Positions 1,340 to 64,000 of a stretch of 64,000 nt of DNA are shown one piece after another. Position 1 is the first letter of the stretch, and every line of letters starts with the position of its first letter. The notes under the pieces are model-generated. The model had not been told where the DNA came from, made no database searches, and worked only from the letters and a program-made list of their open reading frames with translations. The stretch lies in NCBI GenBank assembly GCA_965235115.1, contig OZ249436.1:25980001-26044000 (forward strand), written 5' to 3'. Source of the stretch: Laetmonice hystrix (Eukaryota). Position numbers and translations under genes: made by a program.

Positions 1340-1544
1340 AGGTATATCGCCCATGATAACTTAAACTCCACGAAATTTGGTGGAAAGGAAAGATCCATGG
1401 CCCTGACCTTATCCCTAACCCCTAACCCCTAACCCCAGTTCCTACACCTCCCCAAAACATATCCCTACCCTACCCCTATCCCTGATATTAACCCTAACCC
1501 CTGCCCAAACATTTCGTGGAAAGTTATCATGGGGGATAGAACCT
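1340..1544. mobile_element. MITE with ~23-bp TIRs and internal telomere-like (TAACCC)n repeats
   Basis: TIRs AGGTATATCGCCCATGATAACTT / AAGTTATCATGGGGGATAGAACCT. Absent from the other two array units, whose empty site is TTCTGAATACACAATC. TSD is GAATAC, or AATA if the TIR is read as CAGGT..ACCTG. Confidence 0.85.
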
Positions 1545-19718: not shown

Positions 19719-19755
19719 CAGGACTCATGACATGTTCGCCACGTCCAAGTGGAAC

Positions 19756-27749: not shown

Positions 27750-27758
27750 GCTTTAAAC

Positions 27759-27874
27759 ATGCATTATCATATCTACTTCCGGCTTACGAAATGAAATTGG
27801 AAATTTTATAAGTGCTCCAGGGGAGCACGACATGAAATTAGAATTTCATGAGTAAGCCGGAAGTAGATATGATA
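27759..27874. repeat. DIRS internal complementary region (ICR)
   Basis: First half is the reverse complement of the left terminus, second half the reverse complement of the right extension, joined at TGAAAT. Confidence 0.9.
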
Positions 27875-30198
27875 CTCCCTCCCGATAGACATTGACCCAC
27901 CCTAACCATGGATTTGGTTTCTCATTGCAGTCGTTAGAAGACCCGAAGGGCGTTAGTCGAGGGAGGTGGCGGATGTGTACATACGTTCATTCAACGATTC
28001 GAGGTTCAAGGTTCAGCATTACCTGTTATGTTCAAGATGAAGGATTGGGAGTTTCCTTGCACGTTCGAGCGACACCAAGGGGCGGACGGGGTGGATGGAG
28101 TCGCTGCTTAAGTTGGGTAAGTTGGATTTTTGACTCCGCTTTGATTATTCAAAGGGCTCGGCTCAGCCAAATCTCAAAGGACGCACCACCGAGGCATCAT
28201 GGGAGTTGTTGTTTTAAGTTTTGAAAGGCTTAGGTCTCGCGTCACGACACGAGAATGCATTATCATATCTACTTCCGGCTTACTCATGAAATTCTAATTT
28301 CATGTCGTGCTCCCCTGGAGCACTTATAAAATTTCCAATTTCACCACTCTGACTACTTCCGGCGATACTGCGCTTGCGCGTCGCTTGCGCTTTGTATCTC
28401 TGACACCACCTCCCGCTTCATGTGCAGATTTTGCACATAGCCGGAAGTGAGCCTAAACACTCTGACATAAGATCAATGCGCTTGTTGTTTTCCGATATTG
28501 AACAAAAAAGACTTGTTAATGACTTCCTTGCATTCATCATTAGTTGTCCGATATTATTTGACAGTTTGTAGATGTTGGTAGCCTTATAGGTGGGAGAAGC
28601 GAATGTTTTCCGGAAGGAATTTAGTTCTACGCGTAATATTACAACCTGTGCATTTGTTGACAACGGGCACGCCACATTGTGACGTCACTAAGGGCGAACG
28701 TCACAATCGCGAGTCACATGGGGAGGTGGAGGCAGAGTCATTGAATGAAGAGAGATGGCGCTGCGGTAGGAGAATGGGATTTCACCTCTGTTGACATCTA
28801 ACCGGGACTATCTTTTTAGACAATAACCAGGGCAACAACGAGCACGTGTAGGACGTTGTCAATGTCAGCGACGTCAGGAACAATTCACAATAGCGCTACG
28901 TCACAATGGGTCACAATGGAATGTGATCATAACGGGCCCTAAATAATATGAAATGTCGGGGACATAGGGAGCGCGCAGCGTGTGGTAGCACTAGTGCTGT
29001 GGTAGGTGGATGTTAAACTCTAACGACTACGTCCAAAGATTGGTACTGCGGCCTAACGATCACAGGTAGACTAGTATGAATATCTATTCATCAGACATAA
29101 ATGATTAAGAGCTAACCCTAACCTTAACTAATCCTAACTCTATCTATAGCCCAATCGAGCCCGACGATCAAACTCGGAAACAAAGCGGCGGTGTGTCGTA
29201 CTGGATGTTGACACCGGAAGTCCCAGTCGGCGGAAGTGGGCTTTCAGCGCTGGCGGCGCATAGCGGGATTTGAGGGAACTAGTTTTGAGAATCGCACAAG
29301 CCAAAGTAGTTTACAGACAGCGATCGGCTGGTGAAAGTATAGATCCCATATTTCTCCTTCAGTCATTGGAGACATAATTTAATTAGGCTATAGCTGGAAT
29401 ATTTTTGCATTCTTTACGAGTTTCTCATTAATTGACATTTTTTTCGACCAATCACAATCGAGAAAATCCCGCAACTCGGACATTCAAGATGGCGCCGTGC
29501 ATGGACTGCGGTCCGGTTACCATCCGGTTTAAGTTGTTGGCTTGGTGGATCTGGCAGAGGTTGAGAAGATCTACGTACGTTGCCATAACAGCGCTTCGCG
29601 GCGCCGCCTTCGGCGGCGCGCGCTGCGCGCTATAATGGCGGACGGTGCTTCGCTTCGGCAGTTCAAATGCCCCATACTCCTAAAATACACAAGGACGGAT
29701 GTCGAAACGTGACATAAGGGGATAAAATATTGAACCAAACAATGTCACAGACTTAGAATTGTTTAGGAAGGTCCCTCCTTTCTTATTTCAAGCACTGTTA
29801 TCGCCGAAGATCGGCAAAGTTTGTGACGTTACAATTTCGTACCCTCGTAATCTTGACAACCGGCGAATGTATATTTATACGACTTGTTCACTGGCCTTAT
29901 TACACACCCCAGTAATACCCGTCCGAAGATAGAGTTCCTCAGTTATCAGTCAAAATTCCATGCAAAGAGTCCATGACATGACATGTGTGTCATTGCTCTG
30001 TAAAGTCGGGGACAAACAGAAAAATGACTGATACTAATTTCTAGATGATATTGGTGGGAACATCAAATGTTTAAATTTTGTGCATTTTGTTTAGATGTCC
30101 ACAGAGGTGAAATCCGCCCGCGCGGTGAACCCTGGGAGAGAATGGGGATTCCCTAGTTCAGTTTCTAAACGGAGTCTTCCAGGGGCCAGTTTTTAAAT

Positions 30199-33155: not shown

Positions 33156-33993
33156 ATCACAGTCTTAGGCCTAAGCCAGCGTAAGACTGAGCCTAGTCTT
33201 ACGTTTCTGTTTTTAAATCAGCTGACAGAGGCTTAGACTTTAAGCCTAGACTCAGCTTTGTAAGACAAGTGCCGAGCTGGCTTAGCATGCTTCAAATGTC
33301 TTTTTCCGAAGATTTAGACAAAATTGTTTCTTCCCATCACTATTCATCGGGTTATTTTATATAAAAATCTGATGAGATCAACATTTACACAGAATAGATT
33401 CGTATTAGTTGAAATATGCAACTTGACTACGGACTCGTTTCGCTGCGTCATCGTCGTTGTTGTGGTTGGCTTGGGCGGAGGTGCAACCTTTGACCTAAGA
33501 CATGACCTCTGACCCACCTATGACCGATGACCCAGCAATTTTGACGTACTCCTTTTTGTTACGTAAATCTAGATTAGCAGAGTCAAAGACAGCATCGCCT
33601 GACAGTTAGAGGTTGGCATTAACGAATTCTACGGACTTTTTCACATGTTGCCATCACTGGGGCAAAATAATAGCTTTCAAAGATCATTCTACATTCTAAT
33701 GTGACGTTTCCATCATGGTGGGATCCGTGTTTTGTCGCCACCAGGCTTAGACTTACCTAAGCCAGGCAAGCATGCTGGGTCCGGTTTTTAAAATAAGCCA
33801 AGGCTTACTGGTAAGACTCGGCTTACGGTAAGACTAGGCTTACGTTTCTGTTTTTAAAACAAGTTCTAAGCCTGGCTTACGCCAAGCCTAGGCTTAGCCG
33901 TTGTCATGGGCGGAAAATGACGTCACACTGGGGAATCCCTGGAACTCTCCTAACTAAGAGGCATGTAGACGTACTTCCGCCCAAATGTAAACA

Positions 33994-41677: not shown

Positions 41678-44600
41678 TCAGTTTAGAAAGTGCCGCCTTG
41701 CCAGCTCCTCCCGATACATGCGGCCAACAATGTCGGCAGCTGCGTCCCGCACTGGTTCAGGTTGTTGGTCCATGTCATCTGGATCTGCGGCAAGCACGTG
41801 GATGTCGCCTCTTCTCGCGCCTAATGTCAAAGTAAAATATATTAGTACATGCATCACCCATCATAACTCCAATCTCCAATAACATAAATTAACTTTACTT
41901 TGTAGTCTACTAAAAGAGAAGGGAACTCGATTAGTTGCTTACTTACCGATGTTGTGCAATACTGCGCACGCTATAACTATTTGTGGCACCCGTTCGGTGG
42001 TCTTCAGCCGCAAGGTTCCACTCAACACTTGGAACCTCCTCTGCATAAAAATAATTAAATCAAGGTGATCTTGGTTTTGTAACGTTGAAAGGCTAATGTA
42101 ATTAATAAGAAATTATAAAATCGGGCATATTCACATTACTTTGTGCAATTTCCATTCTGAAATGATCAACAGTCAGTCTACCTTGAGGATGCCAAACGCC
42201 TGCTCAATGACCACGCGCGTTCTTGCCTGCGCTTGATTATAGCGTGTTTGGTGGTCTTCACGTGGTGTAAGATAAGGTGTCAGCATGTAGCGGCTGGCCG
42301 GGTAGGCTGCGTCACCAACTAAGTGGCCATTAACGATGCCTGTAGATCACAACATTTAATGAGATGGTAACAAATACTGGTGAAAGAGAGACCAGCAGAT
42401 TGTGTGAAACCAATCATTTAGACCTCCAAATAGGCCTATATTATTTTGGTATAAGGTCTTTATTGCACTTCATATCAATAAGTCGCACACATGTGGTTTA
42501 CCACAGGAGTCTGACACATGGCGGCGGCTGTGTTGTTATATTACTATAGCTACCGCCCGCCCAATGTGTCAGCTTCCTGTGGGTTTACATGTATAATTCT
42601 TGGCGTTCATTCCCATCTTACATTATGCCAGAAATCCTCCATTTCTCGATCTGATGCATAGCCTGATTGGTTTAGCTGATAGCCTGATTCCAATATCTAA
42701 AGTTAAAATATTCATGAGGCTAATACAGGTCCGTGAAATAAAATGTTCAGGATACCTTCTTCAAAGAGCCGCCTTAGGCCTGACGCTTCAAACACACGGG
42801 CGTCATGAGTCGAACCTGGCCAGCTTGCCACGACATCAACGAAGAGGAAATCAGATGTGCAGGCCATCTGAAATATCCAGTTCTGTAGTTCAGTTCACAC
42901 TTAGGGACCGTAAAAATCTTGACGTGAACAGTGGGAATACTTGTAGTACCGGTAATTGCAATCCTTTTTGGCTAGTGATTTCTGAACCTCAAATATTTTA
43001 ATTTAATGCATATTTTCACCTAGAATTCTTTAGGTATGCCTATATCCTAATATTATATTTTAATTTAATGTGTATGCATATATCATTTGGCTAGCCAAAG
43101 AATTCGGCTCTGTGCTCTGTACAGAGCCGAAGATCGCTGTTCAGAATTTCCGAGCGTACCCGGACAAATCTTCTGTCTGCCATGAAAAGCCCTCCCTTGT
43201 CTCTATATGTTGATGAAAAAGTGATGAATAAACTCAAAATAACTTATCTCTCATATCTGCAAGCTGGAAAAGCACGATGCGACAAAATAAAGACAGTCAC
43301 ATCTCTTGAACCGAGAAATTTCAATGCTCGTTGAGTGCCGCCATTACCGTCGGAGACACTCTCCAACGCAGAGCTACTTCCGCTTCGCTTTCGCTTCACA
43401 CAGTAGGTTATGATCCACTATTTATTTTCTTCTATAATTTAATGTAATGTTTTGGCCATTTTCAATGTTTAAAATAATTTCTGCGAATGTCTGCTTGGCA
43501 TGGCAGGTTAGATATACATGTTTCCGACAATAAAAACTCAATTTACGTATAGGTTGAATGATTAGATTTTATTTTATCGGAGCTTCTGTTACATGACCCC
43601 AGGTGGCACCACCAAATCGACCAGAATACAGGCCTGTGATACATAACATATTGGCTAAGATTTTCCAAGGAAAGTTAAGCAGATATTCTCTAATAACACA
43701 CTGATATTATTGATCATATAGTGAACTTTTTCTCTGTGGTATTTGATGAGCACATTCAGGGGGGTTATATCCATTCTTGGCCCTAGATACATTCACTCCA
43801 TACCATTTTGAGGGACAACCAGCAGCCCATTGGCTAAATAGGGGGTCATGACCTACAGATCAAGACCCATCACCCCGAATCTGTTCAAAATTGGACCCCT
43901 TTAATGGTTATATGTTTGCAACAACCACACAAAATATAAATGGTGTAGACTAAATGAAGACTGAGTTATCGATCATATACAATATGGACACTCGGAGATA
44001 AAAAAAACCCTATTTTGCCCTGCACTCATAGCAGTATTCTGACTTTGTGCACAAATTAGACAATGAATAAATTCATCTATGAACTTCTCATTTTAGTTAT
44101 GTATTAAGCCAACATGTTAAGTGTTCAAAAGTTGAAATTAATAAATATAAAGTGAGAATCTTCATTCCCTATGAAGCATGTGAGTACCCCCTGTCATATT
44201 TTCAGTAAAAAAAAGGTCCACTTTATTATATTTATCCCCATATCTCCCTATGTTGGATTTCAAAAGTGTCAAATTCAGTTGAGGGAATATGGGAAGGATG
44301 TTAACTTCAAAGAAACATCAAAAGAGATGTACTCCAAGTGTCTGTCTGGATGTATGGACCCCTCAAAGGTGGTCACCCACCCCAGGCAGGAAGCCTAGGT
44401 TAATAGGGGGAGGGGTTCAAAGGTGCCACTTGAGAGTCTGAGCTGCCTGGGAAGAGGGTGGGAGTGGGTATATATGAAGCCAACAGGCAGATCAAACTCA
44501 GTATCATTTTTCTGTTTGATTAGAACAGGATTTTAAAAAAAATTCGCCTAAATTATAGAGAATTTCTTAGAAAACTACCATGACATCACGTAGCAGAAAG

Positions 44601-47600
44601 AAGCACAGCTGGAGACATGGCTTTCAACCTGGTAACTGCGCCTACAAGTTGAGAAAGCAGGCCGGTAGGCCTGAACCAGACGTAGGTGTCTATGTAAGAC
44701 CCACCAAAGAAGAATTCGAATTACTCCGCTCACCTACACACAGTGGAAGAGGAGATCAGGCTGCAGCCACCATCACCGACAGTGAGGGCCGGCTGTGCAA
44801 GGCAAGGCCTTGCAAACAAAAAAAAAGAAAAACTGGCTGTCACACAGTGCATTCCTGCCTGAGGGCTTTGGCCTTACATGCACGGATGGTGACAAGGAGA
44901 AACTGGTCAGACTGATTGAATACAGGCTGGGCCAGAAAGTCCTGGAAAAGACCAAACACCTGTTAACCACCCAGAAATGTGAAGCTGTCAACAGGGCCAT
45001 AAGCAGTACAACACCCAAGAACAAAACATTTTCAAGGAACTTTGCTGCCAGAGTGCACTGTGCTGTGAATGCTGTGAATCGAGGGATTGGTGATTCAATC
45101 CTGAGTCAAACAGAGTTTGTGGGAGCCCCAGTCACTCCTGGTACACGGGTGACACGTGGCCTGCTGCGACGTCAGCAGCAGGACATGGCCAGAAAACTTG
45201 CCAGGGGGTCAACAAAGAAAAAGAATGCACGAATCAACAAAAGAAGGACACTTTTTAAGCTTAAGGACACCTGCGAACCACAGGATTCTAAAACTTATTA
45301 CCAGAAAATTCTTGCCTTGAAACAGACTCAGCACAGTGACCATACCTACACAAAAATGTGAACATAAATTATGGCCGTGAGAGAGCTCGGGGTTAGACCT
45401 AAACTAAAGCTACACCTACCAGGAAAAAAACAGTTAGGGGGGCCTAGGGGTGTGTTCCCGGGTGCAAACTTGCTGTGCATTACAAACACGTCTTGCAGCA
45501 TTCACTGGACGTGGCTCAAGGGTCAGGTGGGAGGGATTCACACACAGGGTTTGGTGGCACAAATGGCTAATTTCAACCCTATCTCCCTGAAGATTGATGT
45601 TGGGGGGGCATTAAAATCTGAACCGAAATGTGGTTAATATTTGGTTGTTGAATAAGGTAGTGTAATTGATAGGCTAATCTATGGACACGAAAATAAATCT
45701 TTTTAGAGGAACCTGGCAAACGAAGACTTAGAACCCCATAGTGTGAATCTCCCCACCTGGCCTCTGTCCACAGGAGGCACCCTCCACAAACGAGTCTACT
45801 TTTACTCAGTAACCTGCCCTGTACTTCTGTGACAGCCTGCCGCGGCTCCATGATGCTTTGGTGGGTATGGGTGACACTCTCTGAATGTTGACTTTGGCAA
45901 CCAGAAGTAAAATTCCTTTGTATAGTGAGTTTCCCATCAGGCCCCTACAGGTTATGATCCACTATTTATTTTCTTCTATAATTTAATGTAATGTTTTGGC
46001 CATTTTCAATGTTTAAAATAATTTCTGCGAATGTCTGCTTGGCATGGCAGGTTAGATATACATGTTTCCGACAATAAAAACTCAATTTACGTATAGGTTG
46101 AATGATTAGATTTTATTTTATCGGAGCTTCTGTTACATGACCCCAGGTGGCACCACCAAATCGACCAGAATACAGGCCTGTGATACATAACATATTGGCT
46201 AAGATTTTCCAAGGAAAGTTAAGCAGATATTCTCTAATAACACACTGATATTATTGATCATATAGTGAACTTTTTCTCTGTGGTATTTGATGAGCACATT
46301 CAGGGGGGTTATATCCATTCTTGGCCCTAGATACATTCACTAGGGACAACCAGCAGCCCATTGGCTAAATAGGGGGTCATGACCAGTAGTAAGCGAGTCT
46401 CTGCGTAGGAGCTTCCGTCGGAGAGATGCATGCTGGGATCAAAGGCAACATGGCGGCCGGTAAAACGCCGTTAAACGGGTGATCTAGACATGAATTTGAC
46501 GTTGTACTATTAAAAACACTGCTTCATGACCCCACACACTTACTGTCGAGATAAATGGATGCCGGTGAGTTGATCAGTGCAAGCGGTGGTGGTCTGGCCT
46601 GGGTGTGGTCTGGCCCGCCAGGAATTTAAGCCATTGCCTGTAAGCCTTGTTGGCTCGGCACAAGGCTTACTACGTAGGCTATCATTTGGCATGATATCTT
46701 TACCTGCACATTGACGGCAAACCGCCCTTTGCGGTTTCGGTACAACCAGTACCTAGGCTCAGAGGGCCTCATGATGGGCACCTGTGTGCCATCCACAGCC
46801 GCCAAGACGTTCGGAAGTCCTGAAGAAAGGGGGGAAAAGCCAAACGTATTAGACCCATGGATATAGACTCAATGTATGAAAAGAATCTTCATACCGATGC
46901 CCAGGCGCGTGTCCAGAGACGGGGGGGGTCTAGACCCCCCCCTGCTCCCACAGAGCATAGCTTTTTCTAAGCATTCCCGCCGTTTTAAACCCATTCAGCG
47001 ATTTTTCTACTAAGCATTCCCGCCGTTTTGAACCTGTTGAGCGATGAATCCACAAAATATAATGCCCTAATATGGCCCCTAAATGGCAGGGAATCGCGTC
47101 TCAGAGCATCTAATTTTAAAAAAATTTCCGAGACCCCACCTCCCTGCTGAAAATCCTGGACACGCCCCTGATGCCACACTATAGACCTAGATCTATAGTT
47201 CGATTTTTTGAGTTTCTTTTATTATTATTTTATTATTTGTTTCCTCTTATTTTCCCCCTTAGCCTAAGCTTTTTTTCCACATGCCTGCATGTCCACAAAA
47301 TGTTGTTCACGATTATGCCTAGGCCTAGATGTAAACCCCCTTTTTTTACGCCATTACTTCTTTAGTCAGCAACACTCAATATTCCAGACAACCCACCAGA
47401 AGTAGGAATAATATCTAACGCCTACCCAGGGATGGGCCCCTTGATAACTCAACAGAGTAAGGGCGCTGTCTGACAGGGGCAGGCCATTCTTCAAAAGGCC
47501 ATGCGCTCTTCAAAAGCAGGGGTGTAGCCGGGGGGGGGGGGGGGCCGAAGGGGGCCTTGCCCCCTCCCCCCACAATCAAACCTACCCCAGTAAAGATTGA

Positions 47601-48566: not shown

Positions 48567-50205
48567 GACAACGGGCTTACCGTCAGCCGTAAGACAGCTC
48601 CTACCCTGGCTTATAAGCCTGAGCCTGGCTTACGCTTACAAGCCTCATTTGCATGTTTTAAAAACACAACATGTAAGACTGGGCTTAATCTTACCCTAGT
48701 TTACGAGTAAGCCAGGCTCAATCTTATTTTAAAAACCGGACCCTGATTTAAAAACTGGAATTCAGGCTTAGACTTGGGTAAGTCTAGTCTTAGTCTTACC
48801 GAACCCATTTGATTTAAAAACTGGCCCCAGAACACCGTTTAGTTGTCGAGTGACGCTGGCCTAGCGACTCATGGACGCTCTGCGAAGAGGTCCGTTATCG
48901 CAACTTTGCGGCCTTCGTTTTGGTACTAAACTTCTTCCACGGAGTATGAAATCGATTTTTATAGAGAGCCACGGTATTGAAATTTCTATTCCGACTTTGA
49001 TTATAATTATTGGACAAATATAACGTCCACACGGTCCGGTTGTTTACGAGCATGTCGGGTCCGTAGGTCCGTCAGCCATCTGCGGTGCACCGAGTGACCG
49101 GGAACTGATAAAAGTTAGATCGCTACTGGTACCCGAAACGGGTAGCTTCACTCTGTGCCCATTCGAAAAACCTCGGCCCAACTTCCGGCCGCTTGGGCGT
49201 TTAAGTATGTCACGAGAATTCAAGAGATTTCGCGTTAGCGGGACAAGCAGCAAATAGCCTCGCTGGTTTAAAGGGACTCGACACCAATAAGCCAAAAATT
49301 TCTGACCCAGAGATTTTCAGGCTACTTTCACATAAAATAATTCTACATTTTTCGAGTATTTTGGTGCAAAGAAAATGGCGGGTCACCATATCGGATCCTG
49401 AGTTATGAGCATTTGAAGATAGGCCTTCAACTCGCACTACTACAGTCTACAGTAGAGAGAGATACGTGAAATTTTTGGTTCGAATTAGAAGAGAGAAGAT
49501 TTTTTTCTGACATTTCTAACCCAGAGATTCTGAAAATACTTCTCAGAATTGTTGCATGACTTGTTTTGAACACTTTAGATTAAAAAAAATCATATGTCAC
49601 TATGGAAATTCATGAGATATCGACATTTTCACTACCAAGGGTCTTATCGGTCCCATAGACTCCAATGTTAAAACACATAGTCAAGTACATTTTTCTGGCA
49701 TCGTGAAGCCTTTTGTCAAACTGTTTCTGGGATGCGAAGCGGCCAGACTTGACTCTGCCTCTGCATTGCCGTGTTGTTGACGGGCGCCGGCCGAGTCCAT
49801 GGCATGGAGCACTACCGACGCTCACTGGCGAAGACAACATCAGTTTGCTTTTGCCTCAACAGACAGTCAAGTAATTTATCACGCAGTTGAAATCTTTACA
49901 ATAGCTACTTACGGCGAATTTCAAAGTTAACAGTCGATTTACTTTTTCACCAAATCAATGTCACTGTCCAGTGACAATGATAGAAGTTCTAAATTTGGTA
50001 GAAGAAATCGTGTGAGCGGACAGCGCGGCCATCACAGAGGCACATCCTCAATGTATTTTTAGATAAGCCAATAATAAGTGAGCTATCAAAGACGGGAGTG
50101 TGACCAATACACCCATATCACGCCGACGTCATTACGTAACCAAAACGAGGCCAATGACGCAAACAACAAGGCCACTGTGCCACGTGACTGTGCTCAGCGG
50201 CGAAG

Positions 50206-52858
50206 ATGGACGGTCGTCACGATCACTGCTGTGTCCCTCTCTGTAAAAGCGACTCGCGATACCACAGACACAGTGAAGTTAGCTTTCATGCCATCCCAAA
50301 AGATGAACAAAGGAGGCGTGCGTGGATTCATGCAATCAGGAGGGACCCTGGATCGAACTTTAAGGTGAATATTTAACCCGAAAAAAGTCGCAATATCAAT
50401 CAATGTCAAGCCGACTGCTAGATGATAGATGTAGATTCTAGACCTTGCTTGTCTGGCCTAGCCTAGTTAAGTTGTAGTCTATACTGTTGAGTGTTGTAGC
50501 TAGCATGATTAAAGACTAGAGTATAGGATCGAGGGTATAGATCATGTAGAATTAAGTCTGGATTGACCACGACCTGCTCTGCTAGCGGGCCGCTGCTAGC
50601 ACTGGCGCCAGGCCGAACCCCAGCGTCAGCGTGCTTTACGTTTAGTTCTGACATTTATTTACCTGTCTTGAGTGATTGTCATTGTGACTGTGAGTGTAAC
50701 TGTCCGATCAGTCAAGTCGTTACCGAAACGAGTTGTAACTGAACCGATAGTGCAGTAGCCAAAACAAAATGGGGGTTAATTTTATTCGTGTCAAAATTCT
50801 TTCTGGTGTGGTAGGCTCTGCGCCGGGAAGGGGGGCGGGGGTGACGATCTTAGACTTTGGAGGTTCATGTCAACAATAAACAAAGCATGTGTAGACTAGT
50901 CTATGTCGGCCTCTATTCTTCAGTATCTAGATCTATATGCTAGGATTAGGAATAGGATTAGTTTTGATGGCAGTCTGTGACTTATGGCATGATACAATTT
51001 TACAAGACAGTATAGTCAACAATATACAACATTTGCAACAAATCAAGTGTTACTGCCAGGCCTAAGTAGCCTACTGCTTCCCTTATTGATTAAAAAACTT
51101 ATTAGACCTACTTTATTACTATTAGTCTAGTAGATGTAGTAGTAGTAGCAGATCTAGTACCCAAAATTCTGATTTAAATGAAAATTGAATCCACCCAGTG
51201 ACCCTCCCAAGGCTGCTATTTTAATGCTGATGGGTTTAATAGCCAGGATAATTCAGTATGACGTATTCAATCAGTGTATCTATAGTTTACATGTAATTGT
51301 ATATTAATTTGAATTTCTTTTCACACCCTAGATCACGTCTTCAACTAAGGTGTGCTCCATACATTTTGAGAAAGAAGAGATTGTGAGAAGCCTGTGTGGA
51401 AAGCGGGGTGTGATTAAGGGAGCAGTTCCTCACATATTTCCATGGACCAAGGAAGCAAAGAGCAGGAAGTCACCAAAAGAGCGAGTGTCATCTTCTAATG
51501 AACCAACTGACGATGGGTTCCAAATGGAATACACTGAAGAAAGGTAAATTCAAATGAATATCAAGGTTAGAAATTAGGCCAAAAAAAACTTTTTTGGAAG
51601 CACAGCAAAAGGCCATCCAGCCTCCCGCTAACATCGATACCTGAATATGAAAGACACTTTATGTATTTGATAAAATATCAACTGGTTGGTAATGAAAAAT
51701 TTCTTGGGTAATCTTTGGTAATCAACTTCGGTCAAAATGGCAGTGCTATTAGACTAATGACATTCCTTCTTTTTCAGTGAAGCAAGCAGAAGTGTACTCT
51801 GTCAACGGCCTCCGGACCACGACTACACAGCATGTTCAAAACTGACACTTGAAGAGCAATTGGAAGCTGCCTTGGAACACATCAGTCTGCTGGAGAAGGA
51901 AAATGAACACCTGAAATCGCTCCAGTTTGGTATCAATCGTTTCACCACAGATCCTGACATGATAGCTTTCTATACAGGCTTCAGATCATATGATATGTTC
52001 TTGACAACATATTTAGCCTTTCAACCAACCGCTGATAATCTTCTCACTTGGTCACAGCTTCAGAGACAGAGGTCCGGTACTGCCTTAAACACAAGAGACA
52101 TTCTCAAACATGAACATCTATCCACAATAGATCAATTTTTCTTATTTATGTGTCGCTGCAAGGCTGGCCTTTTTGAGAAGGATCTGGCCGAAAGGTTCCA
52201 TGTAAGCTTCTCAACAGTGAGCAGAATCATCATCACCTGGGCAAACTATCTGTACCACCTTTTAGGAGCTTTGCCAATTTGGCCATCTTGTCATCAGATT
52301 CGTAAACATATTCCTGAATGTTTCAAAGAGTGTTATTCTACCACCAGAGTAATATTAGATTGCACTGAGATTAAGTGTCAAACTCCATCAGCGTTGTACT
52401 TGAACAGCCAGCTGTACTCGCACTACAAGGGTAGCACAACATTCAAGGGTCTGATAGGCATTACACCCTCAGGAGCAGTGTCATTTGTCAGTCAGCTGTA
52501 CACGGGAAGCATTTCTGATGTGGACATCACAGCAAGATGTGGCATTGTTGACCTTTTAGACTCACTGGACTCGGTCATGGCTGACAAGGGATTCACCATC
52601 CAAGACCTTTTGGCTACAAAAGGTGCCACTCTGACAATTCCGCCTTTTTTAACTGACAAACGTAACCAATTTGAAAGGGGTGAGGTTCAGCAAACACAGA
52701 ATATTGCCAGGGTCAGGATCCACGTTGAACGCGCTATCAGGAGAGTAAAGGAGTATCACATATTTGATAGCATTGTACCACTAAGCCTGGCAGGTACCAT
52801 CAACCAAATGTGGACTGTTTGTGCTCTTCTGACAAACTTCAGAGGTCCCCTTTTCTGA
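50206..52858 (+). CDS. THAP-domain DDE transposase (DDE_Tnp_4/ISL2EU type), 3 exons, ~483 aa
   Basis: Exons 50206-50364, 51332-51543 and 51778-52858. THAP signature CCVPLC..FHAIP..W..AIRR..VCSIHF..AVP, DHDY motif, HTH (DLAERFHVSFSTVSRII), catalytic motifs ILDCTE, MADKGF and RIHVERAI. Confidence 0.92.
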
Positions 52859-53593
52859 CTGCATCATGAAGCATTTCTCAACAAATCGATCATCCCATCA
52901 CAGTGTTAGTTGCTGTATCTGACGTGATACAGTATTTGCTGCCATGTCTTGAAAAATTAAAAATTGGTTGTCGGGTTGAAATAAGTTCCTTTTAAAAAGA
53001 ATATGTACTTTGATGATAAAATGTTATTTACGGTACATGTGAATTCTTTTTAATAGAAAAATGGAAGTTTAAAAACTTGACAATTTTACTGTCAAGGAGG
53101 GGAACATGTATTTCTTTAGATTTACCCCAGTGTAGTAACGAAAATAAAGATGAAGAATAATGGAAGACTCAAAAAATTCTTCAGTATTTTTAATTCATCC
53201 TGCAATAATTGATCGATTTACAAATGGTTTACAGATGACATAAATACGGTTACATGATCTGGTCATGTAACATTTAAGTTACCTGTTATCTTACGGAGGG
53301 TTCTCCTTTTTTTTCTGTAATTAGTAAGTTTACCCATTTCATTCCACTCCGAGTTCCAGAACGTGAACATCGAACGTCTTCTTCCGTCTCCAACGCACCC
53401 AAGATCCTTATTTTAAAACATAATTTTACATTTCTATTGCCCTACCGTACCTACCTGACAACACAGTAGCATTAAGCAAGTTCTCACACTGTATATGACT
53501 GAAATCTTTTCCACATTAAATATTTTGCAAAGCATTACTATCATCATCATACAGTAATATTTGGTCATCATGTACAGTTTGTGTCGTCACATT

Positions 53594-56500
53594 TCATTTC
53601 TTGGTAGATAACAAACATGGCAAGAAATGCTCAAAATAAAAGGCATCAATATTTTCTTTCATATCTGCAAAGAAAGCTTCATCAACATTAATTTTTTCAA
53701 TTATGAAATCTTCTTCACAGTAAACCATAAAGTCACACCAAGTGAATCCTGTAATGCCTAACTGTCCCATTATTTGGTAGTAGTACTCATGAGTGTGTTT
53801 TAATGTGTACTCCCCATTCTGTCTTTGCTTCAAATATTTACAATCTTTATAGGTGTTGTTCCCAGGACACTTTATCTCAAGAAGCCCCCACTTTTGGTCA
53901 TCTGCAGCAGATGGATCATATACGAGACGATCAGGAGAGCATCCCAAATGACAAGCTGTGGGATTTATAACAAAGCCAATGCTGTACACATTCACTCCCT
54001 TGTTTCTGGCGTAAACTTCTGCAGCTGTAGGTTCAAGTTCTAGCCCTCTTCTCATCAAACTGGTTTGCACAGTTTTGCCTGTTATCAGTCTTTGAGCCAG
54101 AGATTTAAAGTCTCCACGTCTACAGCAAATCTGTTTGAATTTTGATGCAGTTAGACGTGACTCGCGAAGTTTTTTCCACTCAGGGCAAGCACTTTGTGTA
54201 CGGGTTGAAAGTTTGTAATCTGATGACTCGAGCAATGAGCATGAAAGCCCATCATACAATGACTGAAGTTCATCCGTGAGGGTAGACACATCGTAAATCA
54301 TAGGAAGAACAGGTCTCGGGCAAGGTGGTCGACTGGGGGCATCAGCTACCATTAGTATACGGTCTCCTGGGGTGGTTATCTGCTGCTGATGAGCAAGCGT
54401 AGAGCCAAATGGGACTGGACCAATCTCACTTGGAACAGCTACAGGCCAGTTATCCGGAAGTAGCTGCAAAATCTGGGGCTGTACAGCCTGTGTAGACATC
54501 ATGCGCGATATTTTACCAGCAAAGTTCCTCGAGACGTCATAAATCGGTTCTCTGATAGGGTTATACAGCGTAGATGTAATTCCTGAGATAAAAAGAAAAT
54601 ATTAAAAGACTATGAACAATTTTTACAACATACAATGTTACAATTGCAACAATATTTATCCACTTGGGTAAAAAAACAGAAATCAAGTTTCACATGTTTT
54701 TAGCCCCAACCCCCTCGGGTTGTGGGGTAACAAGAACTGTTAGAAGCTAGAGGATGTGGTTAACCAATATTCTGGGGCTCACCTGCGCTAGATAATACAT
54801 GATAAAATTCAATGAAAATATGATGTAAAACTTATTTCATATTTAATTCTTGAAAGGTTCTTGAATTAACAAAAAATTGTTAATCAAAACAGTTTAATCA
54901 AGTTAACCACAAAAAGGAATTTAAAATCAAATAATGCTTTAATTTATGTTTATTGTTTTGTATTTGAAAAACAATTCTCACCAGTGACAATTCTTTTCTT
55001 CTTGACTCTTGGTGCACTGCTTGAGGTAGGTGGCTTGACCTTAAGGACTGACATGTCTGATATTGGTACTGGCTTAATTCCATGAGTTCTTGGGGGAATG
55101 TGCCATTGCTGTGGAGCCGATGTTTTTGATGTGATGGGGGGAACAACTTTCAGTCCTAGGTTTTGGTAGTGCACCAGTTGATAAAGAAGAGCAAGAGCGT
55201 GATTGCACACTCCTTTACCTGCAGTGCAGGAGCAGTGACATGTGATGTCCATATCATCAATGAAGTGTAGCTGAAAGCAAAAGAAGATTATTTAGTTCTT
55301 ACTGTATGTGCATCAATATATTATCAATCATAACATCGTGCAAAATATGATAAATTCGTCTCTCACTAAAGTAAAGGGTTGAAGGCCTACATAGGTCTGT
55401 TTCTTTCATAAATGTAATGACTACACCTGTGATACCGATCTCAGGTTCCCGCTTCTGTCCCCCAGAGGATAATGCCAAGGCTGTGTTTAAAATCTGGTAT
55501 TTTTTTATTATTTAAATACGGTATACAACAAATGTTATCTTACCTCATAAACAGATTAACACCTCATAGTCATAGGAACTCCTTTCCTAAGGAAAAAGCA
55601 AAAACTTTAAAAAAACTGCAAGTTCAACATTCAGGAATTACTGAATTAGTAATATATATGCAAAACGCCAACGGTGAAAAAGAGTACTGTAACTAAAACA
55701 ATAATAACACAATGTTAAAGACAAACTTGAAAAATTACCTGCAGGTCCTTTGGTGGGTCATTTTTTTTCATTGAGGGGTAACACTGTGCTCTTACCTCCA
55801 CCTGACTGCCACTCTTTACTGCGCATAAAATGTAGAGAAATGTATTAGTTTTATTGCATACATTGTGTAGGCCCTATAGTACAGTTATTCCTTTCTTAGC
55901 ACATTATCATGTTATAATATCTAATTATCAAAAGACTTATATTATAATCTTTTTTTTATTTCCCACTGGCCCTGTACTATAGTATAGTATCGTATAGCTG
56001 ACCCAAGACAAATCTGTCAAAACTGACATAGGCTAGGGCCGACTTAGACAATGAAAATATTTGTTTATCATCAATTTAAGTTTATAGTCTACGAGTATGA
56101 TCTGGATTGATAACTATGAATGATTATGAATGGGTTCTTATGAATGACATTACAACACCACATATATGCCTGGGCCAGACTTGGTCTAGCCTAAGTTTGG
56201 TAGCCTAATTAAGTTCAGCCTTCAGGTGACTGTTGCAGGAGCCCGTTTCACTGACACCCTAAATTCCTAATCAAATGCCCTAATTTGTAAACGGTAACAT
56301 CCCGACTTGTTGACACCATGCACTCAAAACAAGTCAACTGTCAAGTGTTTCACTTTCACTAAAAAAAATGTCTCTCCTTGGAATTCAATGGCAATGTTAG
56401 GCCTAATTGCAAGGATCGACATTTTTTTTGAAACGGTATGTCTCAATCAGAATCTTGGATGTCCCCACTAGGCCTACTTGACTTGTTGGGATGTCCTTGC

Positions 56501-57024
56501 TTGGTGAAACCTAAACTAAAGCAGGCAAAGCTGGCGTAGGCCCTACGGTCATTCCGACCATCCCCCGGGCCCGGCGGCGCAACACTGCCGCCAACGCAAC
56601 AGTACGTCGAGCGGTAGCCTACTCTAGTCCTGGCCCCGGTCATGGCTAAACCTCTATGTCTACGAATAGGATTACCGAAAACAAATGTTGGAAAAAAAAC
56701 CAGTTTAGGCATAATCTTATTCTAACTCACTTTTAAAAACTCACTGGCACATCCACTAGCACACTAACGTAGATCTAGTCGTGACAGAGTCGTGGACGTA
56801 GGGGTCAGTGATCGTAATCTACTTCAACAGTTCAAGCATTGCTTACCTTCTACGTTGTGAACATATGATCCAGAAAAAAACGCATCTATATAGCCTCTTG
56901 TCTGCAACTTCTTTGGCACCTTGGCCTTTTCGTTGGCCCATTTCTCAATGAAGGAATGGGACAACGGAGGAACTTTTGACAAATTCCTTGTCCACACCGT
57001 CGGCACCGTCGCCTGCTTCGCCAT
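53594..57024 (-). CDS. SWIM zinc finger plus YqaJ/lambda-exonuclease-like (PD-D/ExK) nuclease, 4 exons, ~511 aa
   Basis: Exons 57024-56847, 55818-55739, 55270-54982 and 54582-53594 total 1536 nt in frame. SWIM CSCTAGKGVCNH; YqaJ motifs W..LR..RLTASKF, GLELE, LGCSPD, LEIKCP and YYYQIMGQL. The start could be 57030 or 57060. Confidence 0.9.
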
Positions 57025-57196
57025 TGACATGTTGATCCCGCCCCAGTTTGTTTGCGTCATTAGCCTCGTTTTCGATTTTAATGGCCACTCCGTGATACAC
57101 GACTCATATCACGCCGACGTCATTACGTAACCAAAACGAGGCCAATGACGCAAACAACAAGGCCACTGTGCCACGTGACTGTGCTCAGCGGCGAAG

Positions 57197-59852
57197 ATGG
57201 ACGGTCGTCACGATCACTGCTGTGTCCCTCTCTGTAAAAGCGACTCGCGATACCACAGACACAGTGAAGTTAGCTTTCATGCCATCCCAAAAGATGAACA
57301 AAGGAGGCGTGCGTGGATTCATGCAATCAGGAGGGACCCTGGATCGAACTTTAAGGCGAATATTTAACCCGAAAAAAGTCGCAATATCAATCAATGTCAA
57401 GCCGACTGCTAGATGATAGATGTAGATTCTAGACCTTGCTTGTCTGGCCTAGCCTAGTTAAGTTGTAGTCTATACTGTTGAGTGTTGTAGCTAGCATGAT
57501 TAAAGACTAGAGTATAGGATCGAGGGTATAGATCATGTAGAATTAAGTCTGGATTGACCACGACCTGCTCTGCTAGCGGGCCGCTGCTAGCACTGGCGCC
57601 AGGCCGAACCCCAGCGTCAGCGTGCTTTACGTTTAGTTCTGACATTTATTTACCTGTCTTGAGTGATTGTCATTGTGACTGTGAGTGTAACTGTCCGATC
57701 AGTCAAGTCGTTACCGAAACGAGTTGTAACTGAACCGATAGTGCAGTAGCCAAAACAAAATGGGGGTTAATTTTATTCATGTCAAAATTCTTTCTGGTGT
57801 GGTAGGCTCTGCGCCGGGAAGGGGGGCGGGGGTGACGATCTTAGACTTTGGAGGTTCATGTCAACAATAAACAAAGCATGTGTAGACTAGTCTATGTCGG
57901 CCTCTATTCTTCAGTATCTAGATCTATATGCTAGGATTAGGAATAGGATTAGTTTTGATGGCAGTCTGTGACTTATGGCATGATACAATTTTACAAGACA
58001 GTATAGTCAACAATATCAACATTTGCAACAAATCAAGTGTTACTGCCAGGCCTAAGTAGCCTACTGCTTCCCTTATTGAATAAAAAACTTATTAGACCTA
58101 CTTTATTACTATTAGTCTAGTAGATGTAGTAGTAGTAGCAGATCTAGTACCCAAAATTCTGATTTAAATGAAAATTGAATCCACCCAGTGACCCTCCCAA
58201 GGCTGCTATTTTAATGCTGATGGGTTTAATAGCCAGGATAATTCAGTATGACGTATTCAATCAGTGTATCTATAGTTTACATGTAATTGTATATTAATTT
58301 GAATTTCTTTTCACACCCTAGATCACGTCTTCAACTAAGGTGTGCTCCATACATTTTGAGAAAGAAGAGATTGTGAGAAGCCTGTGTGGAAAGCGGGGTG
58401 TGATTAAGGGAGCAGTTCCTCACATATTTCCATGGACCAAGGAAGCAAAGAGCAGGAAGTCACCAAAAGAGCGAGTGTCATCTTCTAATGAACCAACTGA
58501 CGATGGGTTCCAAATGGAATACACTGAAGAAAGGTAAATTCAAATGAATATCAAGGTTAGAAATTAGGCCAAAAAAAACTTTTTTGGAAGCACAGCAAAA
58601 GGCCATCCAGCCTCCCGCTAACATCGATACCTGAATATGAAAGACACTTTATGTATTTGATAAAATATCAACTGGTTGGTAATGAAAAATTTCTTGGGTA
58701 ATCTTTGGTAATCAACTTCGGTCAAAATGGCAGTGCTATTAGACTAATGACATTCCTTCTTTTTCAGTGAAGCAAGCAGAAGTGTACTCTGTCAACGGCC
58801 TCCGGACCACGACTACACAGCATGTTCAAAACTGACACTTGAAGAGCAATTGGAAGCTGCCTTGGAACACATCAGTCTGCTGGAGAAGGAAAATGAACAC
58901 CTGAAATCGCTCCAGTTTGGTATCAATCGTTTCACCACAGATCCTGACATGATAGCTTTCTATACAGGCTTCAGATCATATGATATGTTCTTGACAACAT
59001 ATTTAGCCTTTCAACCAACCGCTGATAATCTTCTCACTTAATTGGTCACAGCTTCAGAGACAGAGGTCCGGTACTGCCTTAAACACAAGAGACATTCTCA
59101 AACATGAACATCTATCCACAATAGATCAATTTTTCTTATTTATGTGTCGCTGCAAGGCTGGCCTTTTTGAGAAGGATCTGGCCGAAAGGTTCCATGTAAG
59201 CTTCTCAACAGTGAGCAGAATCATCATCACCTGGGCAAACTATCTGTACCACCTTTTAGGAGCTTTGCCAATTTGGCCATCTTGTCATCAGATTCGTAAA
59301 CATATTCCTGAATGTTTCAAAGAGTGTTATTCTACCACCAGAGTAATATTAGATTGCACTGAGATTAAGTGTCAAACTCCATCAGCGTTGTACTTGAACA
59401 GCCAGCTGTACTCGCACTACAAGGGTAGCACAACATTCAAGGGTCTGATAGGCATTACACCCTCAGGAGCAGTGTCATTTGTCAGTCAGCTGTACACGGG
59501 AAGCATTTCTGATGTGGACATCACAGCAAGATGTGGCATTGTTGACCTTTTAGACTCACTGGACTCGGTCATGGCTGACAAGGGATTCACCATCCAAGAC
59601 CTTTTGGCTACAAAAGGTGCCACTCTGACAATTCCGCCTTTTTTAACTGACAAACGTAACCAATTTGAAAGGGGTGAGGTTCAGCAAACACAGAATATTG
59701 CCAGGGTCAGGATCCACGTTGAACGCGCTATCAGGAGAGTAAAGGAGTATCACATATTTGATAGCATTGTACCACTAAGCCTGGCAGGTACCATCAACCA
59801 AATGTGGACTGTTTGTGCTCTTCTGACAAACTTCAGAGGTCCCCTTTTCTGA
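57197..59852 (+). pseudogene. Copy-2 THAP-DDE transposase, disrupted
   Basis: 4-bp insertion at ~59040 (CACTTAATTGG vs CACTTGG) creates TAA and a frameshift; intron 1 donor is GC at 57356 instead of GT. Confidence 0.85.
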
Positions 59853-60587
59853 CTGCATCATGAAGCATTTCTCAACAAATCGATCATCCCATCACAGTGT
59901 TAGTTGCTGTATCTGACGTGATACAGTATTTGCTGCCATGTCTTGAAAAATTAAAAATTGGTTGTCGGGTTGAAATAAGTTCCTTTTAAAAAGAATATGT
60001 ACTTTGATGATAAAATGTTATTTACGGTACATGTGAATTCTTTTTAATAGAAAAATGGAAGTTTAAAAACTTGACAATTTTACTGTCAAGGAGGGGAACA
60101 TGTATTTCTTTAGATTTACCCCAGTGTAGTAACGAAAATAAAGATGAAGAATAATGGAAGACTCAAAAAATTCTTCAGTATTTTTAATTCATCCTGCAAT
60201 AATTGATCGATTTACAAATGGTTTACAGATGACATAAATACGGTTACATGATCTGGTCATGTAACATTTAAGTTACCTGTTATCTTACGGAGGGTTCTCC
60301 TTTTTTTTCTGTAATTAGTAAGTTTACCCATTTCATTCCACTCCGAGTTCCAGAACGTGAACATCGAACGTCTTCTTCCGTCTCCAACGCACCCAAGATC
60401 CTTATTTTAAAACATAATTTTACATTTCTATTGCCCTACCGTACCTACCTGACAACACAGTAGCATTAAGCAAGTTCTCACACTGTATATGACTGAAATC
60501 TTTTCCACATTAAATATTTTGCAAAGCATTACTATCATCATCATACAGTAATATTTGGTCATCATGTACAGTTTGTGTCGTCACATT

Positions 60588-63500
60588 TCATTTCTTGGTA
60601 GATAACAAACATGGCAAGAAATGCTCAAAATAAAAGGCATCAATATTTTCTTTCATATCTGCAAAGAAAGCTTCATCAACATTAATTTTTTCAATTATGA
60701 AATCTTCTTCACAGTAAACCATAAAGTCACACCAAGTGAATCCTGTAATGCCTAACTGTCCCATTATTTGGTAGTAGTACTCATGAGTGTGTTTTAATGT
60801 GTACTCCCCATTCTGTCTTTGCTTCAAATATTTACAATCTTTATAGGTGTTGTTCCCAGGACACTTTATCTCAAGAAGCCCCCACTTTTGGTCATCTGCA
60901 GCAGATGGATCATATACGAGACGATCAGGAGAGCATCCCAAATGACAAGCTGTGGGATTTATAACAAAGCCAATGCTGTACACATTCACTCCCTTGTTTC
61001 TGGCGTAAACTTCTGCAGCTGTAGGTTCAAGTTCTAGCCCTCTTCTCATCAAACTGGTTTGCACAGTTTTGCCTGTTATCAGTCTTTGAGCCAGAGATTT
61101 AAAGTCTCCACGTCTACAGCAAATCTGTTTGAATTTTGATGCAGTTAGACGTGACTCGCGAAGTTTTTTCCACTCAGGGCAAGCACTCTGTGTACGGGTT
61201 GAAAGTTCGTAATCTGATGACTCGAGCAATGAGCATGAAAGCCCATCATACAATGACTGAAGTTCATCCGTGAGGGTAGACACATCGTAAATCATAGGAA
61301 GAACAGGTCTCGGGCAAGGTGGTCGACTGGGGGCATCAGCTACCATTAGTATACGGTCTCCTGGGGTGGTTATCTGCTGCTGATGAGCAAGCGTAGAGCC
61401 AAATGGGACTGGACCAATCTCACTTGGAACAGCTACAGGCCAGTTATCCGGAAGTAGCTGCAAAATCTGGGGCTGTACAGCCTGTGTAGACATCATGCGC
61501 GATATTTTACCAGCAAAGTTCCTCGAGACGTCATAAATCGGTTCTCTGATAGGGTTATACAGCGTAGATGTAATTCCTGAGATAAAAAGAAAATATTAAA
61601 AGACTATGAACAATTTTTACAACATACAATGTTACAATTGCAACAATATTTATCCACTTGGGTAAAAAAACAGAAATCAAGTTTCACATGTTTTTAGCCC
61701 CAACCCCCTCGGGTTGTGGGGTAACAAGAACTGTTAGAAGCTAGAGGATGTGGTTAACCAATATTCTGGGGCTCACCTGCGCTAGATAATACATGATAAA
61801 ATTCAATGAAAATATGATGTAAAACTTATTTCATATTTAATTCTTGAAAGGTTCTTGAATTAACAAAAAATTGTTAATCAAAACAGTTTAATCAAGTTAA
61901 CCACAAAAAGGAATTTAAAATCAAATAATGCTTTAATTTATGTTTATTGTTTTGTATTTGAAAAACAATTCTCACCAGTGACAATTCTTTTCTTCTTGAC
62001 TCTTGGTGCACTGCTTGAGGTAGGTGGCTTGACCTTAAGGACTGACATGTCTGATATTGGTACTGGCTTAATTCCATGAGTTCTTGGGGGAATGTGCCAT
62101 TGCTGTGGAGCCGATGTTTTTGATGTGATGGGGGGAACAACTTTCAGTCCTAGGTTTTGGTAGTGCACCAGTTGATAAAGAAGAGCAAGAGCGTGATTGC
62201 ACACTCCTTTACCTGCAGTGCAGGAGCAGTGACATGTGATGTCCATATCATCAATGAAGTGTAGCTGAAAGCAAAAGAAGATTATTTAGTTCTTACTGTA
62301 TGTGCATCAATATATTATCAATCATAACATCGTGCAAAATATGATAAATTCGTCTCTCACTAAAGTAAAGGGTTGAAGGCCTACATAGGTCTGTTTCTTT
62401 CATAAATGTAATGACTACACCTGTGATACCGATCTCAGGTTCCCGCTTCTGTCCCCCAGAGGATAATGCCAAGGCTGTGTTTAAAATCTGGTATTTTTTT
62501 ATTATTTAAATACGGTATACAACAAATGTTATCTTACCTCATAAACAGATTAACACCTCATAGTCATAGGAACTCCTTTCCTAAGGAAAAAGCAAAAACT
62601 TTAAAAAAACTGCAAGTTCAACATTCAGGAATTACTGAATTAGTAATATATATGCAAAACGCCAACGGTGAAAAAGAGTACTGTAACTAAAACAATAATA
62701 ACACAATGTTAAAGACAAACTTGAAAAATTACCTGCAGGTCCTTTGGTGGGTCATTTTTTTTCATTGAGGGGTAACACTGTGCTCTTACCTCCACCTGAC
62801 TGCCACTCTTTACTGCGCATAAAATGTAGAGAAATGTATTAGTTTTATTGCATACATTGTGTAGGCCCTATAGTACAGTTATTCCTTTCTTAGCACATTA
62901 TCATGTTATAATATCTAATTATCAAAAGACTTATATTATAATCTTTTTTTTATTTCCCACTGGCCCTGTACTATAGTATAGTATCGTATAGCTGACCCAA
63001 GACAAATCTGTCAAAACTGACATAGGCTAGGGCCGACTTAGACAATGAAAATATTTGTTTATCATCAATTTAAGTTTATAGTCTACGAGTATGATCTGGA
63101 TTGATAACTATGAATGATTATGAATGGGTTCTTATGAATGACATTACAACACCACATATATGCCTGGGCCAGACTTGGTCTAGCCTAAGTTTGGTAGCCT
63201 AATTAAGTTCAGCCTTCAGGTGACTGTTGCAGGAGCCCGTTTCACTGACACCCTAAATTCCTAATCAAATGCCCTAATTTGTAAACGGTAACATCCCGAC
63301 TTGTTGACACCATGCACTCAAAACAAGTCAACTGTCAAGTGTTTCACTTTCACTAAAAAAAATGTCTCTCCTTGGAATTCAATGGCAATGTTAGGCCTAA
63401 TTGCAAGGATCGACATTTTTTTTGAAACGGTATGTCTCAATCAGAATCTTGGATGTCCCCACTAGGCCTACTTGACTTGTTGGGATGTCCTTGCTTGGTG

Positions 63501-64000
63501 AAACCTAAACTAAAGCAGGCAAAGCTGGCGTAGGCCCTACGGTCATTCCGACCATCCCCCGGGCCCGGCGGCGCAACACTGCCGCCAACGCAACAGTACG
63601 TCGAGCGGTAGCCTACTCTAGTCCTGGCCCCGGTCATGGCTAAACCTCTATGTCTACGAATAGGATTACCGAAAACAAATGTTGGAAAAAAAACCAGTTT
63701 AGGCATAATCTTATTCTAACTCACTTTTAAAAACTCACTGGCACATCCACTAGCACACTAACGTAGATCTAGTCGTGACAGAGTCGTGGACGTAGGGGTC
63801 AGTGATCGTAATCTACTTCAACAGTTCAAGCATTGCTTACCTTCTACGTTGTGAACATATGATCCAGAAAAAAACGCATCTATATAGCCTCTTGTCTGCA
63901 ACTTCTTTGGCACCTTGGCCTTTTCGTTGGCCCATTTCTCAATGAAGGAATGGGACAACGGAGGAACTTTTGACAAATTCCTTGTCCACACCGTCGGCAC
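60588..64000 (-). CDS. Copy-2 SWIM-YqaJ exonuclease (start just beyond the window edge)
   Basis: Same exon structure as copy 1 at offset 6994; one visible amino-acid difference (SDYK vs SDYE); no disruption seen. Confidence 0.85.

Follow-up and report, generated by a model that had tools for sequence, protein, structure and literature searches.

A deleted KolobokP transposon with long terminal direct repeats and a broken His-Me nuclease gene

Anatomy of the element and its borders

The element spans 2979 bp of the window, the 64-kb stretch of DNA that was analyzed, and has the layout LTDR-INT-LTDR, in which a pair of long terminal direct repeats, or LTDRs, of 448 and 435 bp enclose a 2096-bp internal region (INT). 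A target-site duplication (TSD), AGTA, is read directly on its left (43402..43405, no strand assigned), followed on the plus strand by the left LTDR (43406..43853), INT (43854..45949) and the right LTDR (45950..46384), with the second AGTA, also unstranded, at 46385..46388. The right LTDR equals the left minus 13 bp: 435/435 aligned bases are identical, and the single gap is in the right copy. Both LTDRs begin with GG and end with CC, and their inverted ends match at 16/19 bases. TACA, which is non-palindromic, stands at both inner borders of the pair (43854-43857 and 45946-45949), the start and end of INT. The repeats with their own inverted ends, the outer AGTA and the inner TACA had been noted in a sequence-only reading of this DNA, and all are confirmed at these positions.

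Two random 4-mers from the neighborhood are identical by chance in 0.5% of cases, or 6.8% if both are of the form T..A. The AGTA duplication is known from one site, with a chance match of about 0.5% for one TSD. Neither a second copy of the element nor another copy of its flanks was found within the window. The best named match of a neighboring transposase was in Branchiostoma lanceolatum, at only 66%, and the atlas taxa, mostly Mollusca, do not point to the host. When joined at one AGTA, the flanks can form a hairpin of -20 kcal/mol (DNA parameters) with a 12/13 inverted match across the site. This is not counted as support, and an inverted-repeat test over the whole flanks was not significant (25/470 controls were equally good).

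The convergent gene pair

INT carries two pieces of a transposase gene on the plus strand. The N-terminal remnant (44571..44812) corresponds to about residues 2-77 of a full-length relative, P0002 (tblastn, 43% identity, E=6e-14), and the C-terminal remnant (44813..45361) to its residues 494-673 (71% identity, E=3e-74). Compared with P0002, the remnant lacks its middle, not an end, with about 416 codons deleted. According to the alignment and residue map, the catalytic Glu motif survives in the C-terminal piece, together with the HxY motif at its terminus, whereas the deletion has removed the first two catalytic Asp along with the DxxH motif and both zinc fingers. This copy cannot make a working transposase. 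Retention of only an N-terminus and a Glu-bearing C-terminus is expected for a non-autonomous KolobokP member.

The closest full-length transposases, P0001 and P0002, share 71-72% identity with the remnant. Their signature (D268, CCHC, D372, DxxH, a second zinc finger, E548) agrees with the KolobokP sub-lineage, where the direct-strand transposase combines a DDD/E catalytic triad and DxxH with two fingers, a CCHC one following the first Asp and another preceding the Glu (PMC9587614). A profile search with the transposase relatives returned six loci, four of them with a convergent His-Me gene. One of them, L002, is 33% identical to the transposase remnant, and by eye its end agrees with the published LTDR of KolobokP-8_MyEd; its sequence ends short, and none of the related loci provided an independent pair of inner tetramers. 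L001, L003 and L005 showed no clear LTDR, and the best candidates in L001 (655 bp lying over the nuclease gene, and 470 bp with 11/20 matches) were not convincing. An exact scan of the JGI metagenomes for the LTDR end gave 0 matches.

Convergent with the transposase, on the minus strand at 45434..45851, is a gene of about 138 codons for a His-Me finger nuclease of the His-Cys box, I-PpoI-like type (Pfam PF05551, E=6.5e-12), with SHLCH at 45568 and CVNPSHL at 45544. The opposing orientation read earlier from the sequence is borne out by tblastn on one strand and Pfam on the other. The catalytic-core motif aligns with the homing endonuclease I-PpoI (PDB 1EVW, 1A73; E=5.5e-4 over 39 residues). 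Unlike I-PpoI, this nuclease is transposon cargo and not intron-encoded, its reading frame is shifted and the final Cys ligand is missing. Equivalents of S97, H98, H110, E114 and N119, reported for the downstream, opposite-strand nuclease of KolobokP, are present and match the KolobokP rows of Data S4 (PMC9587614).

An extra G in the G7 run 45602-45608 breaks the nuclease gene into two frames; this base is missing from the contigs of 4/4 public runs. The loss of the last zinc-ligand Cys was seen by comparing the C-terminus with relatives taken from loci L001-L003 and L005, and among the table rows listed the four runs have no differing letter in this part. Searching by words for homologues of its N-terminal part gave no candidate. 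That selection has kept an intact nuclease was considered and rejected: the last Cys is missing, with no variation there among the rows listed for the four runs.

Near-identical long direct repeats and a short TSD would also suit a non-autonomous LTR retroelement (TRIM- or LARD-like) that captured transposon genes. LTR retrotransposons and TRIMs have TG..CA ends, whereas this element ends in GG..CC and has terminal inverted repeats (TIRs) on its repeats. The longest stop-to-stop frame within it is 191 aa, and Pfam scans of six of the 52 listed frames found no reverse transcriptase or integrase. The genes it carries are exactly those of the KolobokP pair. The termini and gene content lead us to reject this origin, which has almost no probability left; the sequence-only reading had reached the same view.

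Relationship to KolobokP

KolobokP is a marine-invertebrate transposon lineage with long direct end repeats, described by Kojima and Bao in 2022 and then comprising 228 families (PMC9587614). Its published LTDRs are about 450 or 660 bp and have RR..YY ends with TIRs of 11-18 bp in the text and up to 25 in Table S1; its TSDs are 3-5 bp with no strong target specificity, and Figs S2-S3 show many that are not TTAA, some starting with A. Non-autonomous members measure 1.7-3.3 kb, and solo LTDRs and multimers occur (PMC9587614). The repeat length, GG..CC ends, TIR length and 4-bp TSD of the present element all lie within the published ranges. Every feature tested supports the KolobokP assignment, which had been proposed earlier. 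The same proposal had regarded a TSD other than TTAA as a departure. It is not one, given the published KolobokP TSDs (PMC9587614), and we rejected a new TSD specificity.

The nearest counterparts in structure are KolobokP-4N1_CGi (2899 bp), KolobokP-N1_CGi (3053 bp) and the deleted form of KolobokP-1_MeMe, all LTDR-INT-LTDR elements with LTDRs of about 450 bp and RR..YY (GG..CC) ends. A 1.2-kb INT deletion is found in 39/50 KolobokP-1_MeMe monomers (PMC9587614). Like other non-autonomous KolobokP elements, ours combines short TIRs, a non-specific 4-bp TSD, a convergent transposase and His-Me pair and an internal deletion. It shares the transposase superfamily, RR..YY ends and a 4-bp TSD with classical Kolobok elements (Kol0, Kolobok-1_XT; PMC9587614). 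However, Kol0 elements duplicate TTAA, encode a KolX protein and are without long direct repeats (PMC9587614), whereas here the duplicated target is AGTA and a His-Me nuclease is encoded by the second gene, placing the element outside Kol0. We regard it as a further member of a type already known, not a new kind of element.

Judging from its sequence, it probably represents an unlisted KolobokP family. Nine DNA words (8-13 nt) had only isolated or unrelated matches in the published KolobokP consensus sequences, where line breaks can hide words, and the LTDR starts differ from those of the published families compared. TACA at both INT ends is a pair not seen in 39 published families. Directly repeated inner 4- or 5-mers, which had been offered as unusual, are ordinary, since 15 of the 39 families examined have them; KolobokP-1_MeMe has TATA at the start and end of INT, and the same paper proposes an LTDR-INT circle (PMC9587614). 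Because of these 15 families, a relic target duplication remains a plausible origin of the inner tetramer.

Sister copies and mode of movement

Thirteen public runs were listed; six contained next to none of the searched words and four of the remaining seven were compared. The contigs of 4/4 runs cross the transposase deletion without a joint. The LTDR-INT junctions and identical TACA ends of INT recur in contigs of X1, X2 and X3, and the sister copies differ from the element at about 0.2-0.5% of sites. Their LTDRs joined to the INT end have the undeleted form (X1 record 1, X2 record 6). An X3 contig joins 43394 to 46391, resembling an unoccupied site within a host repeat, though the letters between are not known.

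These contigs bear on whether a decayed Kolobok fragment lies by chance between two MITEs that inserted independently. Both repeats have inverted ends of their own, solo LTDRs are known in the KolobokP lineage, and in one X3 contig the right end of the repeat continues into other DNA. Yet the single repeats lack TSDs of their own (AGTA/TACA and TACA/AGTA) and the pair has one; gene order and orientation are as in KolobokP. The repeat-INT junctions common to three runs led us to reject a chance pair, an origin we consider very improbable.

At 43516/46060 both LTDRs carry A in place of the G seen in the LTDR contigs of X1, X2 and X3, and at 43697/46241 they carry C instead of the T of X1 and X3. 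As the pair shares variants relative to the sister contigs, its repeats have at some stage become alike. The first of these shared bases, which the sister contigs of three runs lack, hints at homogenization without reverse transcription. The words "homogen" and "concerted" are absent from the main text of PMC9587614.

The element is very probably a young LTDR-INT-LTDR monomer of a non-autonomous KolobokP family that was most likely mobilized in trans. The non-autonomous form goes back to an element of about 4.2 kb that lost about 1.25 kb internally. By analogy with the Kolobok DDD/E family and PMC9587614, the transposase of an autonomous KolobokP partner would recognize the short inverted repeats lying outermost on the two LTDRs, bind there and excise the whole unit by cut-and-paste chemistry; its insertion at a cut staggered by 4 bp would have produced the AGTA duplication. 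LTDR exchange, by unequal crossover or through an LTDR-INT circle, may keep the two repeats alike.

A different route, still within KolobokP, is possible but rather unlikely: an LTDR-INT circle, with TACA flanking its LTDR, recombined into a solo LTDR already present in the chromosome and flanked by AGTA, so that the monomer was restored on the spot, possibly following a His-Me cut (Fig. 5b1, PMC9587614). It would fit an X1 contig reading INT end, LTDR, INT start, locus L001, a single unit whose termini overlap by 163 bp, and the variants shared by the LTDR pair. However, short-read assembly of any two-LTDR element or tandem array is expected to yield such X1 and L001 contigs, and the X1 order may reflect assembly collapse, as may the contig depths in X3 (118.7 for the LTDR against 31-82 for INT contigs), observations that could otherwise point to solo LTDRs or multimers. 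Ancestral unequal crossover or gene conversion would homogenize the repeats as well, and the nuclease of this copy is damaged. TACA was inherited by the sister copies and is therefore uninformative on how this copy arose. Of the earlier suggestion that the inner 4-mers record insertion into a circle, the relic target duplication stays plausible, but TACA, fixed in the sister copies, is no proof that this copy was formed through such an insertion. Under trans mobilization, TACA is the inherited end of INT and probably marks a relic target-like site.

More speculatively, and with a low probability in our estimate, the family may spread partly without a transposase of its own, with His-Me cuts driving LTDR-LTDR exchange via circles or unequal crossover and the TACA pair left over from the insertion of an LTDR into a circular INT at the founding of the family. 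Transposase-free spread, if true, would account for the survival of the nuclease gene through the deletion and for LTDR variants that are shared within a copy but absent from other copies, a concerted evolution of LTR-like repeats without reverse transcription. In PMC13565253, the upkeep of the KolobokP composite form and the role of the nuclease are described as still untested. The element probably adds one unlisted, young non-autonomous family to the KolobokP lineage, and such a family would be good material for asking whether both LTDRs of one copy evolve together.

Structure, lineage and surroundings of the element

The element spans 43406-46384 (2979 bp) and is flanked by AGTA on either side. 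Its long terminal direct repeats (LTDRs; left, 43406-43853, 448 bp; right, 45950-46384, 435 bp) each start with GG and end with CC, and the 2096-bp internal region (INT) between them has TACA at its start and end. All 435 aligned bases of the two LTDRs are identical, the sole gap being a 13-bp deletion in the right one, and the terminal inverted match in each LTDR covers 16 of 19 bases. The direct repeats with inverted ends of their own and the inner and outer tetramers described in the sequence-only reading are thus borne out. Two random 4-mers from the neighborhood are identical by chance in 0.5% of cases, or 6.8% where both are T..A.

In the accessible part of the paper defining KolobokP (Kojima and Bao 2022, PMC9587614), the LTDRs of this Kolobok sub-lineage measure about 450 or 660 bp and have RR..YY ends and short terminal inverted repeats (TIRs), and a DDD/E transposase gene is paired with a convergent His-Me nuclease gene. 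Oyster non-autonomous families are 1738-3261 bp long. With its LTDRs, TIRs, GG..CC ends, target site duplication (TSD) and convergent nuclease gene as defined there, the element was correctly assigned to KolobokP and is very probably a new, non-autonomous member. AGTA is indeed unlike TTAA, as pointed out earlier, but this is no departure for the lineage; the TTAA TSD is a trait of classical Kolobok, while KolobokP TSDs are 3-5 bp without strong specificity (PMC9587614). Should the host belong to none of the seven phyla listed for KolobokP, the lineage's range would be slightly broader. An LTR retroelement and a chance pair of MITEs were both rejected.

No second copy of the element was found within the 64-kb window, which is a mosaic of transposons. 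A tyrosine-recombinase retrotransposon whose long frames overlap lies at 23385-28343 and looks intact. One frame (1384 aa) has the recombinase at its end (weak PF00589), and the other (845 aa) has a reverse transcriptase (RT) and a weak Dam methylase match. Its inverted repeats (23385-23523 and 28156-28292) and long palindrome (about 27790-28343) suggest a DIRS-type element. At 50111-64000 a unit of about 7.0 kb is duplicated head-to-tail with 99.84% identity, the second copy passing the window end; the array may be longer, or the duplication may stem from assembly. Each unit encodes a DDE_Tnp_4 transposase on the plus strand and a YqaJ-like exonuclease on the minus strand, an ISL2EU-like pairing. 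Two copies of a MITE-like element, each some 660 bp long and 93-96% alike, lie at 19057-19719 and 33156-33777; the termini of the first match perfectly as inverted repeats over 16 bp, and the element's end recurs in part at 48743-48833. The RT region of a non-LTR retrotransposon, frameshifted over three frames (10936-13063), adjoins nested 1-2.4-kb duplications (1-11060) and a degenerate tandem array (13509-14936).

The transposase remnant and the nuclease gene

The 191-aa transposase frame (44786-45361) had no Pfam match. It matches 12 longer proteins, the best two at 71-72% identity, and an HMMER scan with it returned 602 relatives. The two best relatives are full-length PF20700 (Mutator-like) transposases. 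One of them, P0002, matches the window in two parts that abut: residues 2-77 align to 44571-44792 (43% identity, E=6e-14) and residues 494-673 to 44819-45355 (71% identity, E=3e-74). Therefore about 416 codons were deleted, and the parent element would have been about 4240 bp. The lost part carries D268, a first zinc finger (CCHC), D372, DxxH and another zinc finger, leaving just E548 and, at the C terminus, the HxY motif. The full-length relatives share the arrangement from D268 to E548 with KolobokP, for which a 1.2-kb internal deletion is described in 39 of 50 KolobokP-1_MeMe monomers (LTDR-INT-LTDR units; PMC9587614, accessible part). The deletion point (44797-44816) contains a short inverted repeat with 7-bp arms, possibly templated fill-in from aborted gap repair, and the A-run just behind it varies among sister copies.

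Convergent with the transposase is a gene of about 138 codons on the minus strand (45434-45851). The C-terminal part of its product matches PF05551 (E=6.5e-12) and I-PpoI (E=5.5e-4). The product retains equivalents of S97, H98, H110, E114 and N119 and is similar to nucleases in the KolobokP rows of Data S4 seen in PMC9587614. A transposase remnant converging on a His-Cys box nuclease, as originally proposed, is therefore present. A G7 run (45602-45608) has one G too many, which splits the nuclease frame. Since none of the four sequencing runs compared has this G, it is either a homopolymer error or private to the window copy. In four related nucleases the C terminus is H-x-P-x-C; the window nuclease has Pro for the Cys, followed by a stop. 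Because this last Cys is replaced and no differing letter at that position is among the differences listed for the four runs, the family's nuclease may be defective even without the frameshift.

Six related loci were fetched from JGI metagenomes with a profile of six full-length relatives. Four encode a convergent His-Me gene downstream of the transposase on the opposite strand, and the remaining two, of 1.3 and 1.6 kb, are short contigs. One locus, L002, is 33% identical to the transposase remnant, and its end matches by eye the published KolobokP-8_MyEd LTDR, which links these transposases to a family already named. LTDRs could not be delimited in the related loci besides L002. Locus L001 (1-3879) is a full-length related element with a 670-aa transposase and a 137-aa His-Me nuclease; its assembly is a unit of 3716 bp whose ends overlap by 163 bp, and no clear TIR-bounded LTDR was found in it.

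Copies in public runs and possible exchange between the repeats

The stretch is present, whole or in part, in seven public runs from four studies, not all independent as one may be the window's own source; contigs of four runs were compared. Contigs that cross the deletion point without a joint occur in all four, which makes the deleted form a family rather than a one-off. The contigs differ little from the window; in run X1, for example, by six letters and one gap over 1747 bp. LTDR-INT junctions in contigs of runs X1, X2 and X3 are identical to the window's, indicating that TACA was inherited. In contigs that run from the INT end into an LTDR (X1, X2), the LTDR is undeleted, and thus the lack of 13 bp is probably peculiar to the window copy. 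The right end of an LTDR continues into other DNA in one X3 contig, and another connects 43394 to 46391 with undetermined letters between, resembling the empty site of a host repeat.

Judging from the family, the transposase of an autonomous partner would most likely have bound the outer TIRs and moved the whole unit, leaving the AGTA duplication. At 43516/46060 both LTDRs have A, against G in the LTDR contigs of X1, X2 and X3, and at 43697/46241 both have C, against T in those of X1 and X3. Since there is no reverse transcription, a change common to both LTDRs implies exchange between them at some time, be it as gene conversion, as unequal crossover or by way of a circle. Because each contig collapses sequences of other individuals into their majority, the shared bases only hint at such exchange. 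Circles of LTDR and INT, and unequal crossover induced by the nuclease, were proposed for the lineage (PMC9587614), a model awaiting experiment according to the accessible part of PMC13565253; no other studies of KolobokP were found in the literature searched. One X1 contig has the order INT end, LTDR, INT start, compatible with a circle, but also with a multimer or plain assembly collapse, and we consider it unlikely that the window copy itself arose by the circle route.

Tetramers at the INT ends

In KolobokP-1_MeMe, TATA is found at both INT ends and once at INT-INT junctions (PMC9587614, accessible part). To the extent that the supplements of that paper display them, both INT ends were compared by eye in 39 of the 228 families published; two incomplete ones were excluded, as were those with just one end displayed. 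Direct 4-mer repeats occur in 7/21, 3/6 and 0/12 families of three sets, and are non-palindromic in KolobokP-2_CGi and KolobokP-1_BF, both from the set of 21. Five of the 12 families without a direct 4-mer have a direct 5-mer, for a total of 15 of the 39 with either, though these counts are not independent as the families are related. The INT ends of several others (KolobokP-5_MyCo, 2_MyEd and 3_LiLo) are inverted-symmetric rather than direct, making the two LTDR-INT junctions appear symmetric, on which we found no remark in the accessible part of the paper.

TACA at both INT ends fits the known KolobokP pattern. The sequence-only reading saw in the identical inner 4-mers a sign of a repeat unit inserted into a circular internal segment, or of a composite-transposon-like pathway; TACA, being inherited, tells us nothing of the insertion in the window. 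Given the direct repeats in other families, it is reasonable to regard TACA as a relic target duplication that would bear on the origin of the family.
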